DNA of 10,839 nucleotides from a virus: the UHGV virus genome UHGV-0134099. One strand, given 5' to 3'. Position 1 is the first letter of the stretch. Each line of letters begins with the position of its first letter. A program made the translations under genes and the position numbers. Below, in pieces: positions 1-10,839 of this stretch. Below the pieces are notes generated by a model. It was not told the origin of the DNA. It saw only the letters and a list, made by a program, of their open reading frames with translations, and ran no database searches.

Positions 1-40
1 AAACAACTTTTTGTCTTTTTACCTTCCCGTTTCGCTCAAG
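1..40. other. Host chromosomal flank (bacterial B' side of the lambda attB locus)
   Basis: Reverse complement of 1-40 continues the remembered E. coli attB B' arm (cttgagcgaaacgggaaggtaaaaagac...). No ORF. Identity is from memory of the attB sequence, not a search. Confidence 0.6.
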
Positions 41-200
41 TTAGTATAAAAAAGCTGAACGTGAAACATTAAAAATCATTAATATCAATGCGTTATGATG
101 ATTTTTGTCTAAATAATAGACTACATAATACTGCAAAACACAGCATATGCAGTCACTATGAATCAACTACTTAGATGGCATTAGTGACCTGTAACAGAGC
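41..200. other. attR: Prophage attR (P-O-B' hybrid): 15-bp lambda-type core at 41-55 plus phage P arm with arm-type Int binding sites
   Basis: Positions 41-55 ttagtataaaaaagc are the reverse complement of the lambda core GCTTTTTTATACTAA. The left flank (31-40) matches the bacterial B' arm and the right flank (56 onward, ctgaacg...) matches the lambda P arm. Arm-type motifs cagtcactatg (150-160) and attagtgacct (180-190) match lambda P2/P1 Int arm sites. The intervening AT-rich sequence is diverged but collinear with the lambda P arm. Confidence 0.8.
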
Positions 201-241
201 ATTAGCGCAAGGTGATTTTTGTCTTCTTGCGCTAATTTTTT
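201..241 (+). terminator. sib: sib/tI-like intrinsic terminator and retroregulator hairpin in the P arm
   Basis: Perfect 11-bp inverted repeat attagcgcaag (201-211) / cttgcgctaat (226-236) followed by a T6 run (236-241) on the + strand. Position distal to the core on the P-arm side and orientation match lambda sib/tI. Confidence 0.6.
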
Positions 242-361
242 GTCAACATACTGGGTTATCTGAATTTACAACCATGCTCAGTATCTCGATAAGCGCAGAG
301 AAATGATGCAGTGGTGGGCGGACTGGCTGGACGAAAAGGCAAAATAAAGTGTTCCTAGCAA

Positions 362-1135
362 TTAGATGGGCTTGAATTTCTCCCCCCACGACTTTGCCTG
401 TTCTTTAAACCTGGCGCTGACATCACGAGACCATATTTTTCCGGCAACACTCCTGGCTGTTGCCGGAACGCCGCTAAGCATGCTAAATCTTTCGCACGAT
501 TTTGTGACGACAGCGCCTGCAGCAACTATAGAACACGCTCCAATGCTTACATTTTTTGTTATGCATACATTTTGTCCTATCCAGCAGTGTGGTTCTATAA
601 CTATAGGTTTCGATGGTGAATTAACTATTTCCATTGAGTCAATGTCATAAATAGGGTGGCCATCAGTCGCGCGGATTGTGATGCCAAAAGAAAACATGCA
701 GTCATCGCCAATAATTATTGACTTATTGGTATTTGAATTAAAACCCGTTGTCCATAAATTACTTGATGTTGTTGTGACGCCATTACCTACAAAAACGGCG
801 TCTCCACTTTCAACAACTGAAATATTCACGTTAATCAATTTACAAAAATTCCCAACATATGCCACCCCATCATTGCCATACATTTGGATCTTTGTGTTTC
901 TGCAAAGCGTCTTTTCACCTATGTAAACTCTTGAGTTCTTTGAGTTTCCCATAAATGTTACAGCAATACCATTTGGTATTTCAGAGCAACCATTAAGATA
1001 AATTAAATTGCTATCATCGCCATTAACGCCAAGCTCAGAGGGTTTATATGCAGTAAATGATTCCAAATTAAAATCAGAAATGCATGTTTTTATTATTTGG
1101 AAGTTATCTTCAATAACTTTGTTTGCCTGGCTCAC
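362..1135 (-). CDS. Hexapeptide-repeat (left-handed beta-helix) acetyltransferase, LacA/Mac/WcaF/NeuO-like; candidate lysogenic-conversion enzyme
   Basis: The C-terminal half carries tandem hexapeptide motifs (IIIGDDCMFSFGITIRATDGHPIY ... IVIEPHCWIGQNVCITKNVSIGACSIVAAGAVVTKS) with the catalytic-His context (TDGHP) typical of sugar O-acetyltransferases. The ORF track starts at a TTG at 1150; I prefer the GTG at 1135, which has an AGGAG Shine-Dalgarno 6 nt upstream (1142-1146). The gene is AT-rich compared with neighbouring phage genes. Confidence 0.8.
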   Translation of the reverse strand: MSQANKVIEDNFQIIKTCISDFNLESFTAYKPSELGVNGDDSNLIYLNGCSEIPNGIAVTFMGNSKNSRVYIGEKTLCRNTKIQMYGNDGVAYVGNFCKLINVNISVVESGDAVFVGNGVTTTSSNLWTTGFNSNTNKSIIIGDDCMFSFGITIRATDGHPIYDIDSMEIVNSPSKPIVIEPHCWIGQNVCITKNVSIGACSIVAAGAVVTKSCERFSMLSGVPATARSVAGKIWSRDVSARFKEQAKSWGEKFKPI

Positions 1136-1166
1136 AATTGACTCCTGCAATTATTTAAATAAACAT

Positions 1167-1188
1167 GCGCCTTTACAAAAAAAGGCGC
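1167..1188 (-). terminator. Hairpin downstream of the tailspike gene (possible weak terminator or 5'UTR structure of the acetyltransferase gene)
   Basis: 8-bp stem gcgccttt / aaaggcgc with a 6-nt loop. On the - strand it is followed by aTGTTTATTT, an imperfect U-tract. It lies between the tailspike stop and the acetyltransferase start. Confidence 0.35.
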
Positions 1189-1224
1189 AATGATTATATG
1201 ATGGTATATGCGTCTCCTTTCACA

Positions 1225-1253
1225 TTAATATCACAGTATGTCCGAGTTTTCAA
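1225..1253 (-). promoter_or_regulatory. Candidate sigma70 promoter for the acetyltransferase moron (-35 TTGAAA, 17-bp spacer, -10 TATTAA)
   Basis: On the - strand, TTGAAA (complement of 1248-1253) and TATTAA (complement of 1225-1230) are separated by 17 bp, immediately after the tailspike stop. Sequence inspection only. Confidence 0.3.
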
Positions 1254-1264
1254 AACATAGCTTC

Positions 1265-3352
1265 TTATGACAGATTTACGTTAACTCTGAGGTTAGCCCT
1301 GTCAGGGTTACTGTCTCCAGTATCAACGCGGTAACCAACCACAACATCGGTGGCGGTGACGTCCTTCACCCACGTCCGAACTGTTGACGTGGTTGGAGTA
1401 GACCTGTCATCTATCGTTAACTGTACTTGCCTGAAAGCTGGCGTATACAGAAATCGATGAGGGATGCTGACGGTCTTGTCTCCAGCTGTTGATATATCCA
1501 GGTTTGCGCTTAATCGCTGGCTTGTTGAATACCCAACGTTATTTACAGACGCAGAAATATTCCAGTTTTGACTCTTGCCAAGATCCGGTGAGTCGCCTGT
1601 GAATGGAACCTGCCCGGTTAACATTTCCATGGTCAGATTCACGTTTTCTGATGCAGGTTGCCCGGTAGAAACAAACCCAGTTGTGCAGCGATAAATAGAG
1701 CCGGTAATGTTGTTCCCGCGCAACGAGTTCGTTGGCGATACGCGCCTCAAACCAACTGTGCACGTTCTGGCGTTAAATATTACCGTCTGTCCTGCTCCAG
1801 CCAGATGCACCAAATCACCATTGCAGTTTTTGCCGGACACCTTCAACATGCCACCCACCGATGATGATGAGTACAGACCAATCCCTGAATACAGACTCCC
1901 TGCCTCAGTATCACCTGATGGTGCCGTTGAGTTGGAGTAGTTCAGGTCAACCTGGGCGTCATTTGTTACTACCACTGCTGTTGAGCCAACAACCCTGGCT
2001 ACCTGGGTTATCGTCCGTTTACAGGTGACACGGCAAACAAACCCGGCAGATGCCGCAATTGTAACACCATCAAAAGAGGCGTTTGGTAGCGAGTATGTCG
2101 GAATCGCACCCTTCCAGTTTGGATGTAACAGACTCAGGTTACGAATATCGAAAAATGCAGAGCCATAAGTATTGGCGCTAATGTTTACCTGCGACCTGGA
2201 GCTTTCAGCGATAATCCTACCGCCTTCTGATAATCGCACAGTGTTCCGTGTTCTGAACGCTGTACCAGACCAGGCAGCGTACGTGTGAACATCACCTATT
2301 TCAATATTTGCTCCATCAATAACAATACCGTCTACCTCTTCACCAGGGTACACAACTGATGTCGCCGCGGCTGTTTCTGCTGCCGGACGCGGCAGTATTC
2401 CGGCTCGTCCGATCCAAGCTTTTCTCAGCATCCCGTCGTTCGGCCCCTGGATGATAATTCCCTCCCCACCGAAATCACGACCAACAATACTGATGTCATA
2501 AACCGCAATTCTTGATGCGCTGTTTTCTGCACCAGGATTTTTGAACCACGCCCCCACGCCAGCAACGTTGTTTAGTAGAATATCGATAGTGAACCCGAAT
2601 CCCTGCACCTCAAGCCCATTGCCAGTGGTATTACCAAGTGTACCGGATGCAGAATTCCAGGCGCTGGTGAAGTAATTGCAATCGATGCCAAGTTTTGTTA
2701 TTTCGAAATTATTCGCATTTGCTATTACAGCAGTAGCATTTGTCCCTACTATTTGTTTTAAAGTAGTTTGCGTGTATCCAGATCCATTAATAATACATCC
2801 ATCTGGTATTGTTAGCGTGCTAAATAAATATATCCCAGGAGGTATGTGGACGTCCAGCGTATTTATTGCCGCTTGTAATGCGGATGTATCATCGTTTACT
2901 CCATCACCTTTTGCTCCGTAATACTGCGGTGTCTTTCTTAATGCTTCGTAAACACTTGACTCACCATAACCAATATTTTTAGAACCACCAGGTGAAGACA
3001 ATCGTTGCTCCAACTGATCAGGGTCATACTTCAGCACATTCGGGTAATAAAACTGCTGCACACCATACGCATCGTATACAGCCATAGAATGGCCTTGCAC
3101 AGTTACGAACTTGGCAATCTGCCCGTTATATACAGGGTAACCAGCAGCGTTAATGATGATTGGCTGTGCAACAGGAACGTGAGAACCGTCTTCGTTCTCC
3201 ACATAAACCTGGATCTGGTTTTCAGTATTTACCGGATCAGTGTCAATTTTTCCGATATAAATCTTTCCATTAGCTACGGCTTTAAAAGAACGAGCCATAG
3301 TGAAGAGTTGCGAAGGCATCGATACGATCACATTGGCTGTAATGTCTGTCAT
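1265..3352 (-). CDS. P22-type tailspike protein (gene 9 homolog): conserved head-binding N-domain, divergent receptor-binding beta-helix domain
   Basis: The N-terminus [13 protein letters not shown]...[20 protein letters not shown]...[15 protein letters not shown]...NVLKYDPDQ matches the P22/Sf6/HK620 tailspike head-binding domain and YDPDQ hinge as I remember them. The remaining roughly 580 aa are Gly/Ser/Thr/Asn-rich with repetitive beta-helix character and unlike the P22 endorhamnosidase. AGGAG-like Shine-Dalgarno (GGAG) 9 nt upstream of the ATG. Confidence 0.9.
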
Positions 3353-3408: not shown

Positions 3409-3436
3409 ATAAAAAAACCCAGCCGAAGCTGGGTTG
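3409..3436 (-). terminator. Rho-independent terminator downstream of ant
   Basis: On the - strand: aacccagc-TTCG-gctgggtt (8-bp stem, UUCG tetraloop) followed by TTTTTTTAT. It sits between the ant stop (3453) and the tailspike start (3352). Confidence 0.75.
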
Positions 3437-4651: not shown

Positions 4652-4906
4652 ATGGCTAGAGATGATCCGCACTTTAACTTCCGTATGCCTTTGGAAGTAA
4701 GAGAAAAATTGAAATTAAGAGCCGAGGCTAACGGAAGGTCAATGAACTCTGAGTTATTACAAATCGTTCAGGATGCACTATCAAAACCATCACCGATTAC
4801 AGGATATCGCGACGAAGCTGAACGCTTGGCTGATCAGCAGGCTGAGCAGTTCAAGGCTATAGTGTTTGAGACACTTAAAAAGATTTATGAAAAGGATTTG
4901 AAATGA
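4652..4906 (+). CDS. mnt: Mnt repressor (maintenance of lysogeny; represses Pant)
   Basis: MARDDPHFNFRMPLEVREKLKLRAEANGRSMNSELLQIVQDALSKPSP... matches P22 Mnt as remembered, with a ribbon-helix-helix N-terminus. GGAG Shine-Dalgarno 7 nt upstream. The stop codon overlaps the next gene's start (ATGA at 4903-4906). Confidence 0.95.
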   Translation: MARDDPHFNFRMPLEVREKLKLRAEANGRSMNSELLQIVQDALSKPSPITGYRDEAERLADQQAEQFKAIVFETLKKIYEKDLK

Positions 4907-5238
4907 GATTTCTATCACTGTTCTTGTTAGCAGTTGTCTCTTCTTCCAGTGCTGAGCTGCGCGAGCTTCAAACGGGTAATGACCTTCTTTACAACATTCA
5001 ACAAGGTAAAAAGGGTGATGATTTTTCATCGCTTTACATTACTGGATATTTGCGCGGAGTAACTGACTCATTGATACTAATTGGTTCTCTATGTCCTCCT
5101 GATGGCGTTGACATGTATCAATACACCGATATCGTTGAGAAATATCTAAACAAAAACCCAGAATCAAGAAATGAGAGTGCAGTTATACTAACCGCCCTAG
5201 CAGTAGGAAAAACATTTCCGTGCAAAAAGAATCAATAA
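4903..5238 (+). CDS. Small secreted (signal-peptide) protein, function unknown; translationally coupled to mnt
   Basis: N-terminal signal peptide MRFLSLFLLAVVSSSSA with a predicted cleavage site before ELRE. Mature protein is about 94 aa with two Cys (possible disulfide). AAGGA Shine-Dalgarno 6 nt upstream; ATG overlaps the mnt stop. It occupies the locus between gene 16 and immI where P22 has sieA. Confidence 0.7.
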   Translation: MRFLSLFLLAVVSSSSAELRELQTGNDLLYNIQQGKKGDDFSSLYITGYLRGVTDSLILIGSLCPPDGVDMYQYTDIVEKYLNKNPESRNESAVILTALAVGKTFPCKKNQ

Positions 5239-5253
5239 CAATAAGGGCTTAAA

Positions 5254-5643
5254 ATGAAATTGATTATAGCAATGGCTTTCCTTGTCTTCTCGTTTTCTGT
5301 CTCAGCAGAGTGCTGGGTCGTTGGAGATATGCACGGAATAAGCTATTCAGAACGAAATAATTTTCAACCGGAAGAAGATGGTTTTAGTGGAACATTCATC
5401 ATTAAGACAAACGGTGAAGATGCCAGTATCACATATTCTGGGACGGATGCGGGCGGCATGGCTTACAAAGCATTGTCTAAAAACTCCATCATTGGAATCG
5501 GCGCGAATGGCGAAACTCAACGAGTTATCGACTCATGGGTAATACATCCTAATGGAACAGTTTTAATGTCGAAAACCATTTCTGGTTATGGGAATATGGA
5601 TTCAACCAAAGCTTTTGTTGGAAAAGTAAAAAGAAAATGTTAA
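5254..5643 (+). CDS. Small secreted (signal-peptide) protein, function unknown; second gene of the mnt-coupled cassette
   Basis: Signal peptide MKLIIAMAFLVFSFSVSA followed by ECWVV. Mature protein is about 111 aa, Gly/Ser/Thr-rich, with Cys near both ends. AAGGG Shine-Dalgarno 6 nt upstream; 15-bp gap from the preceding gene. Confidence 0.7.
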   Translation: MKLIIAMAFLVFSFSVSAECWVVGDMHGISYSERNNFQPEEDGFSGTFIIKTNGEDASITYSGTDAGGMAYKALSKNSIIGIGANGETQRVIDSWVIHPNGTVLMSKTISGYGNMDSTKAFVGKVKRKC

Positions 5644-8930: not shown

Positions 8931-9593
8931 TTAATAAAGCAGTGAACCAAGCAGACCGATACCAGCACCGATACCAGCACCCCACGGAGTTGATGAACCA
9001 ATTAATTTCGCAAGTCCAGCCCCAGCAATAGCACCAGACGCACCTCCGCCAATAGCAGATTGCATTGCTGATGGTCTGTTGGCATTTGCCGCTGCAAGAG
9101 CCGCACTTTGCTGCGAAATCTGACTCATGTTGTTGGCATATGTCTGCCCGGCGTTTGCCTGACCTTGCAGTGCGCCAAGACCAATGTTTGCCAGATTCTG
9201 GTAGTTGTTCATCTGACCAGACAGCCACTGCTGACCAAGCGTTGGTGCGATTGTTGCTAACTGATTACCGGTTGCGGTGGAACCCAATCCACCTGTTGCT
9301 TCCGCTGCCGCCAGACTCTGATAGCGAGCCTGACCAGCAAGATCTTTGTACTGCTGAGAGTTGTAATACTGGTTAAGTGCCTGACCTTGCCCTTCCAGAG
9401 ACGATAAGTTCTCGAGGCTGCCGACATACTTATCAGCCAGAGGAGTAAACGGCTTTAGGTTATTCATGATGGTGTTGAACTGCTGATTTTGCAGGTCTGC
9501 TGCATACTTCGTAAGCGTCGTCTCAGCACCGTCTGGCAGATCCTGATATTCCTGAGAGGATAGTGGACACCAAATATGGTGGACGCTATCCAT
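8931..9593 (-). CDS. Ejection protein gp7 homolog, 5' end interrupted by the IS66-family insertion (ORF as drawn is probably a truncated or chimeric gene)
   Basis: Gly/Ala/Gln-rich C-terminal region and position match P22 gp7. The ORF's ATG (9593) overlaps the IS tnpA start (9592) on the opposite strand, so the first codons are encoded by IS DNA. The native gp7 5' end and the upstream late genes must lie beyond the IS, outside the window. Confidence 0.6.
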   Translation of the reverse strand: MDSVHHIWCPLSSQEYQDLPDGAETTLTKYAADLQNQQFNTIMNNLKPFTPLADKYVGSLENLSSLEGQGQALNQYYNSQQYKDLAGQARYQSLAAAEATGGLGSTATGNQLATIAPTLGQQWLSGQMNNYQNLANIGLGALQGQANAGQTYANNMSQISQQSAALAAANANRPSAMQSAIGGGASGAIAGAGLAKLIGSSTPWGAGIGAGIGLLGSLLY

Positions 9594-9996
9594 GAAATCA
9601 TTAACCGCAGTGCGTAAAAAAAGCCCTAATTATCCCGTTGAGTTCAAAATCAAAATGGTTGAACTCTCGCATCGACCAGAGATCTCCGTAGCGCAACTCG
9701 CTCGTGAGCATGGGATCAACGATAATTTGCTGTTCAAGTGGCGCCAGTACTGGCGCGAAGGAAAACTACGTCCTCCTTCAACAACAGAAAACAACGTGCC
9801 TGAGCTGCTCCCGATAACACTTGATACCGAAGATGTTGTCCCTGCAACCTCCCCCCGGTCACAACCTGTAGCTGCTGCGGCACCTGAATCACTCAATATC
9901 AGCTGTGAAGTGACGTTCCGGCACGGATCACTCCGTCTGAATGGTGCCATCAGCGAAAATATCCTGAACCTGCTGATACGGGAGCTCAAACGTTGA
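9592..9996 (+). CDS. tnpA: IS66-family accessory protein TnpA (orf1)
   Basis: 134 aa with a helix-turn-helix-like segment (SVAQLAREHGINDNLLFKWRQYW) typical of IS66 orf1. Stop overlaps the tnpB start (TTGA). Confidence 0.8.
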   Translation: MKSLTAVRKKSPNYPVEFKIKMVELSHRPEISVAQLAREHGINDNLLFKWRQYWREGKLRPPSTTENNVPELLPITLDTEDVVPATSPRSQPVAAAAPESLNISCEVTFRHGSLRLNGAISENILNLLIRELKR

Positions 9997-10340
9997 TCCC
10001 ATTACCATCAGGGACCAAAATCTGGCTGGTTGCCGGCATTACCGACATGCGAAACGGCTTCAATGGTCTGGCCGCAAAGGTGCAGACGACGCTGAAAGAC
10101 GATCCGATGTCAGGTCACGTTTTTATCTTCCGTGGGCGTAATGGCAGTCAGGTAAAGCTCCTCTGGTCTACCGGCGATGGACTGTGTCTGCTGACCAAAC
10201 GGCTGGAGCGCGGCCGCTTCGCCTGGCCGTCAGCCCGGGATGGCAAAGTGTTCCTCACACCGGCACAGCTGGCGATGCTCCTTGAAGGTATCGACTGGCG
10301 GCAGCCTAAAAGACTGCTTACGTCACTGACTATGTTGTAG
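9993..10340 (+). CDS. tnpB: IS66-family accessory protein TnpB (orf2)
   Basis: MIPLPSGTKIWLVAGITDMRNGFNGLAAKVQ...FIFRGRNGSQVKLLW...GLCLLTKRLE matches the highly conserved IS66 Orf2 family. Apparent TTG start overlapping the tnpA stop. Confidence 0.85.
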   Translation: MIPLPSGTKIWLVAGITDMRNGFNGLAAKVQTTLKDDPMSGHVFIFRGRNGSQVKLLWSTGDGLCLLTKRLERGRFAWPSARDGKVFLTPAQLAMLLEGIDWRQPKRLLTSLTML

Positions 10341-10388
10341 GCCTCTTTATCCTGGTCGACGCTGAATGAGCCTGGTAATATACCCGGT

Positions 10389-10839
10389 ATGAACAGCTTA
10401 CTTCCTGACGATATCGATGAACTGAAACGTCTCCTTGCCGAACAGGAGGCGCTGAACCGTGCCCTTCTGGAAAAGCTGAACGAGCGTGAACGCGAAATAG
10501 ATCACCTGCAGGCGCAACTGGATAAGCTGCGCCGGATGAACTTCGGCAGCCGCTCCGAAAAAGTCTCCCGCCGTATCGCGCAGATGGAAGCCGACCTTAA
10601 GCAGTTGCAGAAAGAAAGCGATACCCTTACCGGCCGGGTGGATGACCCGGCCGTGCAGCGCCCGCTGCGGCAGACCCGTACCCGCAAACCGTTCCCTGAA
10701 TCACTTCCCCGTGACGAAAAACGGCTGCTGCCGGCAGCGTCATGCTGCCCGGAATGTGGTGGTGCGCTGAGTTACCTGGGTGAAGATGCCGCCGAACAGC
10801 TGGAGCTGATGCGCAGCGCCTTCCGGGTTATCCGGACAG
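10389..10839 (+). CDS. tnpC: IS66-family transposase TnpC (orf3), N-terminal 150 aa only; continues beyond the window
   Basis: Open frame from the ATG at 10389 to the window end: MNSLLPDDIDELKRLLAEQEALNRALLEKLNEREREIDHLQAQL (leucine-zipper-like coiled coil), then CCPECGG zinc-ribbon motif, typical of IS66 transposase N-termini. Absent from the ORF track because no stop is reached. Confidence 0.8.
   Translation, partial: MNSLLPDDIDELKRLLAEQEALNRALLEKLNEREREIDHLQAQLDKLRRMNFGSRSEKVSRRIAQMEADLKQLQKESDTLTGRVDDPAVQRPLRQTRTRKPFPESLPRDEKRLLPAASCCPECGGALSYLGEDAAEQLELMRSAFRVIRT

Follow-up and report, generated by a model that had tools for sequence, protein, structure and literature searches.

The stretch of UHGV virus genome UHGV-0134099 analysed here, 10,839 nucleotides (nt) in length and referred to as the window, encodes at positions 1265..3352 on the minus strand a tailspike of the P22 type (the gp9/gp14 type), in which a conserved virion adaptor is joined to a swapped-in receptor module. 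It is followed by a gene for an O-acetyltransferase of the NeuO/OatWY family. We consider it fairly probable that the module is a horizontally exchanged depolymerase directed at the O86 O-antigen of the lysogen, and that it forms a pair with the acetyltransferase. In the proposed pathway, the adaptor at amino acids (aa) 1-113 would dock a tailspike trimer onto the tail hub, while the beta-helix module would bind and endolytically cleave a surface polysaccharide of the host, most likely the lysogen's own O86 O-antigen, thus letting the virion reach the outer membrane. The soluble O-acetyltransferase, probably expressed from the prophage, would acetylate the same polysaccharide in the cytoplasm and so blunt binding or cleavage by the tailspike, with lysogenic conversion and superinfection exclusion as the outcome. 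The module and the acetyltransferase lie between two conserved homology arms, with the head-binding domain on one side and the 3' end of an integrase gene on the other, and recombination in these arms, as well as within the module, would move the segment between phage types.

The tailspike gene appears in the open reading frame list as 1265..3352 (minus strand) with an ATG start, a stop codon at 1265-1267 and a product of 695 aa. The same coding sequence is named 'phage head-binding domain-containing protein' in RefSeq (WP_236924235.1), and the product also matches PHROG tail families. Its head-binding (virion-attachment) domain occupies aa 1-113 (3014..3352, minus strand) and ends with the YDPDQ hinge at aa 109-113. 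The Pfam family Head_binding (PF09008), which is found in 186 phage records, covers aa 1-113 over its whole 113-position profile (E value 1e-65; 219 bits, cut-off 24). Among solved structures, Sf6 gp14 aligned with aa 1-116 only (E value 8e-61) and P22 gp9 with aa 1-114 only (E values of about 1e-47 to 1e-49). Up to the hinge the tailspike shares 89% and 75% identity with the Sf6 and P22 proteins, respectively; past YDPDQ the identity with both collapses and the divergent receptor domain begins. A first-pass annotation, made from the letters of the window, had assigned roughly the first 115 residues to the P22/Sf6 head-binding module up to this hinge, and the alignment with P22 gp9 bears that assignment out. 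The PDB entries of HK620, which the annotation also named, lack this N-terminal domain, and the comparison covered Sf6 and P22.

The exchangeable module, for which a receptor-binding and depolymerase function is predicted, extends from aa 114 to aa 695 (1268..3013, minus strand). It consists of a short neck of helical structure, a long parallel beta-helix, right-handed, that extends over approximately aa 150-600, and, at the C-terminal end, a small domain of beta structure. The AlphaFold model, made for the monomer, is confident and shows a depolymerase fold of the right-handed beta-helix kind, to which no solved structure is closely related. A separate model of the C-terminal 250 aa had beta-helix neighbours only, and no distinct lectin or chaperone domain was seen in it. 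Gly, Ser, Thr and Asn together account for 37.8% of aa 117-695 versus 22.4% of aa 1-116. The search of solved structures gave no alignment of aa 117-695 with the receptor domains of P22, Sf6 or HK620, nor was sequence similarity to any solved tailspike found past the hinge. When a profile built from 49 sequences of the family was compared with the PDB, the only matches were to the generic "GAxGDGxxDD" N-terminal cap motif of pectate-lyase-like beta-helices; Sf6 was reached through this motif alone, and P22 was not matched. Foldseek comparison with the receptor domains of Sf6 gp14 and P22 gp9 yielded template-modelling (TM) scores of only 0.3-0.4. The earlier description of the remaining 580 or so residues as a Gly/Ser/Thr/Asn-rich beta-helix-type domain distinct from that of P22 is thus upheld, both the homology search and the structure prediction having kept it apart from the P22 endorhamnosidase.

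Specific identities for this domain were considered and rejected. A receptor domain of the P22 gp9 endorhamnosidase type is contradicted by the P22 chains, which align to aa 1-114 only, and by the family profile. An endosialidase (GH58), prompted by the annotation of a homologue in Shigella phage SF1-1, was rejected given the beta-helix fold; neither a beta-propeller sialidase nor a Peptidase_S74 chaperone is among the Pfam matches of the tailspike, and endosialidases are absent from the sequence and fold matches of the module. A colanidase had been prompted by a PHROG label, but the solved phi92 enzyme (PDB: 6e0v) has no sequence homology (E value >1) and a weak fold match (TM 0.27), while the wording 'colanic acid' in PHROG 8280 is an inherited, propagated annotation string. 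No family for the tailspike was found in NCBIfam.

Column conservation in an alignment of 49 sequences, which span 36-93% identity, is highest within the module at aa 297-428 (2069..2464, minus strand), and we infer that this stretch is a putative active or substrate site. Its invariant residues are E297, D306, E351, H356, R373, E383, R404, H410, Y420, and D428, of which the carboxylates are no more than suggestive of endoglycosidase activity. The module might alternatively bind its glycan without catalysis, the activity having been lost or never present, or it might employ a different chemistry, such as that of a lyase or an epimerase. We judge this very unlikely. The similarity to AlgE4 is limited to the N-terminal cap motif, the invariant carboxylates E297, D306, E351, E383 and D428 are of the kind usual in hydrolytic tailspikes, and the O86 O-antigen, whose structure contains no uronic acid, offers none to a lyase (PMC7685785). 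If the substrate is O86, a hydrolase rather than a lyase would therefore be expected.

Homologues of the module (n=90) are carried by at least five N-terminal adaptors and are distributed over three or more phage types and another genus. Versions with 77-93% identity sit on the P22 head-binding domain, on Tail_spike_N (PF18668), on two other N-termini (in proteins of 753 and 963 aa), and on the short adaptor of a 146-kb phage, the PF18668 versions being located in two different siphovirus-type prophages. Among sequenced phages, the module was present only in Shigella phage SF1-1 (81% aa identity), and a sensitive blastn search found it in one of 5,426 complete E. coli genomes. Against the siphovirus-type allele, positions 1572-2971 are mosaic, with 100-nt windows alternating between 96-100% and 66-75% identity. 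This alternation implies that at least two allele types have recombined repeatedly within the gene.

The neighbouring gene (362..1135, minus strand; 257 aa) encodes a hexapeptide-repeat (left-handed beta-helix) O-acetyltransferase, and has a G+C content of 39% versus 48% for the receptor module. Its product matches the Pfam families Hexapep PF00132 and PF14602, and its closest solved relatives are NeuO (PDB: 3jqy; E value 2e-21) and OatWY (PDB: 2wlc; E value 3e-17); the identity to NeuO of phage CUS-3 is 31%. NeuO and OatWY have six active-site residues in common (PMC3046976), five of which are kept here as H160, W185, M147, W235, and R237. These residues align with the catalytic His (H147) and Trp (W171) of NeuO, together with its Met134, Trp220, and Arg222, while the Arg that forms an inter-subunit salt bridge (R174 in NeuO, R148 in OatWY) is replaced by Gln188. 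The NCBIfam comparison returned only generic matches below threshold, the WbbJ and WcaF families among them. No tandem repeat resembling the 5' heptanucleotide (poly-psi) phase-variation repeats of neuO, which number 19 copies in CUS-3, was found in 362-1264. A hairpin with a T-run that resembles an intrinsic terminator lies about 75 nt past the tailspike stop codon (1166..1189, minus strand; consensus scan and direct reading), and a sigma-70 promoter-like site, TTGTAA-17-AATAAT (1150..1178, minus strand; consensus match only), is located upstream of the acetyltransferase gene. The GTG start codon at 1135 is preceded by an AGGAG Shine-Dalgarno sequence 6 nt ahead. Taken with the low G+C content, this putative terminator, promoter and ribosome-binding site are arranged as is common for a prophage 'moron'.

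Elsewhere, the acetyltransferase family is represented next to the tail spike or fibre genes of prophages, or within capsule loci of the ABC-transporter type. In one siphovirus-type prophage (locus L022, 4348-7864), a different tailspike of 830 aa, comprising a PF18668 adaptor, a central domain and a Peptidase_S74 chaperone end, is followed by a NeuO-family acetyltransferase of 50% identity, which suggests that tailspike/acetyltransferase pairs are recurrent. A kps-type capsule locus of E. coli (NZ_CP033635.1, 516551-530685) contains genes for a CDP-glycerol glycerophosphotransferase, a galactosyltransferase and an 829-aa acyltransferase, the last of which has approximately 70% DNA identity to the acetyltransferase gene over 135 nt.

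Comparison by blastn with related loci (L010 and L030) delimits an insert of approximately 0.94 kb that bears the acetyltransferase gene (340..1275, minus strand). In the P22-type copies without it, homology ends at window position 1276 and resumes at 339, within the 3' end of an integrase gene, and 138 nt are present where the window has 0.94 kb. The DNA common to the window and to the siphovirus-type and Enterobacter copies is a single mosaic block of 2.7 kb that runs from window position 2971 to 267. Its last 1.2 kb or so, made up of the final 100 or so tailspike codons, the intergenic region and the whole acetyltransferase gene, is close to 100% identical to the siphovirus-type copy (L015) and about 99% identical to the Enterobacter copy (L025) from 1571 to 372; in its upstream part, segments of 96-100% identity alternate with segments of 67-75%. 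The right-hand conserved flank of the exchangeable segment is what remains, over 78 nt, of the 3' end of an integrase gene of the IntS/CUS-3 type (262..339, minus strand), recognized by its DNA identity of 96% to L010 8219-8296, which lies inside an integrase gene, and of 95% to the 3' end of CUS-3 int. In RefSeq it is annotated as a partial hypothetical protein. Because this remnant separates the acetyltransferase gene from the lambda-type att arm, it indicates that an argW-type prophage was the source of the tailspike/acetyltransferase segment.

The identical tailspike is followed by the acetyltransferase in all five of the P22-type places shown, despite different immI and gp16 modules upstream. 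Assemblies with an identical or nearly identical tailspike are GCA_043368495.1, ERR5311682, SRR14011846, SRR1314499, GCA_023705405.1, GCA_015561905.1, GCA_903972055.1, GCA_902841825.1, GCA_025714925.1, GCA_000700585.1 and GCA_047312485.1. The same acetyltransferase follows an 88%-identical module whose adaptor is PF18668, in a siphovirus prophage of the GpJ type (five of five places), and also an 86%-identical module in an Enterobacter-labelled prophage, whose acetyltransferase is 98.8% identical to that of the window. The chromosome flanking the latter prophage has only 78% identity to E. coli, in agreement with the Enterobacter label. Wherever it was seen, the gene was linked to the 3' end of this module and not to other tailspike types. 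Since it is near-identical across phage types but lacking in three close lineages, the acetyltransferase gene is an optional insert that spread recently, attached in all cases seen to the 3' end of the module.

This optional character bears on whether the two genes act together at all. The acetyltransferase could be an independent fitness or virulence insert, for example one serving immune evasion, that occupies a common slot and does not act on the tailspike receptor. Inserts of this sort are known to cluster where the late operon ends, as exemplified by gtr in P22 and oac in Sf6, and the gene, which has its own expression signals and a different G+C content, is lacking in three of the six close tailspike lineages. 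Its conservation (99-100%) also greatly exceeds that of most of the module (67-100% in patches), so that the gene appears to have spread later than the module diverged. However, the gene was tied in all cases seen to the 3' end of this module, never to other tailspike types; members of its family recur beside other tail spike and fibre genes, and the combination of NeuO with an endosialidase offers a functional precedent. We therefore regard an incidental adjacency as unlikely. The receptor/receptor-modification pair proposed in the first-pass annotation is thus supported as a hypothesis: the NeuO/OatWY family assignment, the co-travel with the 3' end of the module and the slot shared with CUS-3 favour it, while the acetyltransferase proved to be an optional partner.

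With 100% identity, the window matches the chromosome of 1368KP, an E. coli strain isolated from a human in the Czech Republic. The O-antigen cluster of this strain is O86, with O86-family wzx and wzy, wbnI, an alpha-1,2-fucosyltransferase gene and the GDP-fucose pathway. In E. coli O104:H4, experiments with a P22-like prophage tailspike established its specificity for the O-antigen of the lysogen itself (Scholl et al. 2012, PMC3303846), and an acetylase gene is located downstream of that tailspike as well. By analogy, the O86 O-antigen is the most likely receptor to be predicted from the host genome, and we would put its chances slightly below even. An anti-receptor role for the acetyltransferase would agree with the finding that acetylation by NeuO shields K1 strains from K1 phage (PMC13001214).

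Several observations, together with the absence of the acetyltransferase from three of the six close lineages, weigh against this interpretation. The link to O86 consists of one complete genome, since 79 of the 5,426 genomes are O86 and the module occurs only in 1368KP; with a single occurrence, a statistical test of O86 specificity is impossible. A sibling O86 strain, 1217KP (NZ_CM173879.1), is without the module. Phage SF1-1, whose module has 81% aa identity, has several tailspikes and infects Shigella flexneri, so that the specificity is not fixed by this relative. The cassette, with an acetyltransferase of 98.8% and a module of 86% identity, also occurs in an Enterobacter-like chromosome that is 78% identical to E. 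coli, and this is easier to reconcile with a glycan common to different genera than with one E. coli O-type. In the acetyltransferase family, both the characterised members and the chromosomal relatives serve capsule pathways of the ABC-transporter type, not Wzy-dependent O-antigen pathways. Finally, the prophage copy in 1368KP is probably defective and no longer infectious, because its gp7 gene is split by an IS66-family insertion sequence (IS) element (tnpA, tnpB and an ISKpn24-like transposase gene; 8931-9593 on the minus strand and 9592-10839; L001 28931-32088), although in other lysogens with the same tailspike gp7, where called, has no IS interruption in the part shown. Neither an O86 entry nor either accession was found in the supplements of a serogroup-tailspike study (PMC10408124), and no paper on phage SF1-1 was found in the literature.

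Some of these points would be accommodated if the tailspike targeted a capsule (K antigen) or a shared exopolysaccharide, e.g., colanic acid, and if the acetyltransferase modified that polymer in the way NeuO modifies K1. Both NeuO and OatWY, the closest characterised relatives, are capsule enzymes. A homologue with 50% identity is located within a capsule locus of the KpsC/S/D/T type, and the distant E. coli relative described above lies in a kps-type locus together with a glycerophosphotransferase. The occurrence of the cassette in an Enterobacter-like chromosome, the presence of a colanic-acid gene cluster in 1368KP, and the capsule specificity of the P22-like CUS-3 tailspike are likewise consistent with such a target. 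Nevertheless, no kps genes (group 2/3 capsule) were found at the gsp-pheV site of 1368KP. This site (NZ_CM173843.1, 789500-799500) contains gspC-H, IS26, a pseudogene fragment, an integrase gene and tRNA-Phe (pheV), with the type II secretion operon ending at gspH, and the empty kps position possibly reflects an IS26-mediated deletion. As for colanic acid, the phi92 colanidase comparison and the inherited PHROG wording given above both speak against it. Moreover, hexapeptide acetyltransferases also operate in Wzy-dependent pathways, as in the WbbJ and WcaF families. On balance, a capsular or exopolysaccharide target seems to us tenable but rather unlikely, and the O86 O-antigen of the lysogen continues to be the preferred candidate, a somewhat smaller share of the probability being left to some other target.

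A broader proposal would combine the O86 target with the mobility of the cassette. The 3' end of the module and the NeuO-family acetyltransferase might constitute a mobile receptor/anti-receptor unit that circulates across podovirus- and siphovirus-type prophages and across genera by homologous recombination between conserved arms, namely the head-binding or another adaptor at one end and the integrase 3' end at the other, a soluble capsule-type enzyme having been recruited to the Wzy-dependent, blood-group-B-like O86 antigen. We would claim only a small probability for this proposal. Phage-mediated O-antigen conversion normally proceeds via membrane acyltransferase-3 or Gtr proteins; if the proposal is true, a soluble capsule-type acetyltransferase acting on O86 would represent an unusual route to it.

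With respect to its wider setting, the window covers the right-hand end of a prophage of a P22-like temperate podovirus (Lederbergvirus type) that occupies lambda attB and in which the genes are ordered as portal, scaffold, capsid, gp4, gp10, the gp7/gp20/gp16 ejection proteins, the mnt/arc/ant immI region, tailspike, acetyltransferase and then ybhB-bioA. The P22-type late/immI position of the tailspike gene is upheld by its Pfam, PHROG and RefSeq context. The terminal 1..261 (minus strand) is a lambda-type attR in which the attP P-arm is followed by the core GCTTTTTTATACTAA (41-55) and then by the attB B' arm, as established by direct reading and blastn; the matches to 1-261 are lambda-like phages, one with a feature annotated 'attR site', and ybhB and bioA adjoin in the record. 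Because the attR is of the lambda type and lies beside ybhB-bioA, this P22-like prophage sits at lambda attB and not at a tRNA site. A strong terminator-like hairpin (AACCCAGCTTCGGCTGGGTT, then a T-run) is located between ant and the tailspike start codon at 3416-3435 (minus strand). The immI region contains two extra genes on the plus strand. The first (4903-5238) encodes a protein resembling the Rap1a/Tai-type immunity proteins of type VI secretion (PF18602; E value 1e-14), and the second (5254-5643) a 129-aa protein with a signal-peptide-like N-terminus (phrog_2651). An orphan type VI immunity gene on a prophage could shield the lysogen from its neighbours.

Modular P22-like tailspikes with adjacent glycan-modifying genes are already well documented, and current understanding is unchanged by the present example. 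What it adds is clear evidence that a cassette has been exchanged between genera as well as phage types, together with a NeuO-family enzyme, soluble in nature, whose strain apparently offers only an O-antigen. The mosaic pattern provides a clean natural example of receptor modules and cognate modification genes shuffling between phage types. If the specificity were determined, the module (aa ~114-695) could be used as an O86- or otherwise glycan-specific reagent, as a part for the retargeting of pyocins or phages, or as a depolymerase, as with the O104 tailspike; the acetyltransferase would then predict a serotype-modifying change that confers phage resistance on lysogens.

Among known systems, TSP2 of CBA120, which is O157-specific (PDB: 5w6p/6w4q), has only 12% identity to the module, and because many unrelated beta-helix enzymes score nearly as high, the match concerns the fold class only and not the specificity. 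The closest module in a sequenced phage is gp257 of Shigella phage SF1-1 (XPO97728.1), whose protein shares 81% of its residues over 95% of the module while its DNA is 76-77% identical. It differs in having a different short N-terminal adaptor, in belonging to a 146-kb lytic phage with several tailspikes, and in lacking an adjoining acetyltransferase; its label, 'Endo-alpha-sialidase', finds no support in the predicted beta-helix fold. Sf6 gp14 and P22 gp9 have the same adaptor plus beta-helix design, with the 89% and 75% identity of the N-terminal domain given above, but no sequence similarity was detected for their receptor domains beyond the cap motif. In both phages, genes that modify the O-antigen lie close to the tailspike (oac in Sf6 and gtrABC in P22), although Sf6 Oac is a membrane acyltransferase-3 protein and not a soluble hexapeptide enzyme. 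The E. coli O104:H4 prophage also combines a conserved head-binding domain of about 113 aa, a new C-terminal domain and a gene downstream for a presumed O-antigen acetylase (PMC3303846); its receptor module and serogroup are different, and its specificity is experimental while that of the window is predicted.

A further counterpart is CUS-3, a P22-like prophage in which ant, tailspike and acetyltransferase follow one another in the same order and orientation as in the window and are then followed by int. The two differ in the nature of the module, which in the window is a beta-helix lacking the Peptidase_S74 chaperone and not a GH58 endosialidase; in the acetyltransferase, which has 31% identity to NeuO, a Gln in place of Arg174 and no heptanucleotide repeats; and in the host, as CUS-3 is K1-specific and 1368KP has no K1/kps locus at pheV. 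Both acetyltransferases nevertheless belong to the NeuO/OatWY family, and the flanking DNA is shared, with 92% identity at the head-binding/ant end and 95% at the 3' flank of int. Where CUS-3 carries an endosialidase gene (siaK1) and neuO, the window carries the beta-helix module and its acetyltransferase gene, and, judged from these shared flanks, the two combinations are allelic cassettes in one slot.

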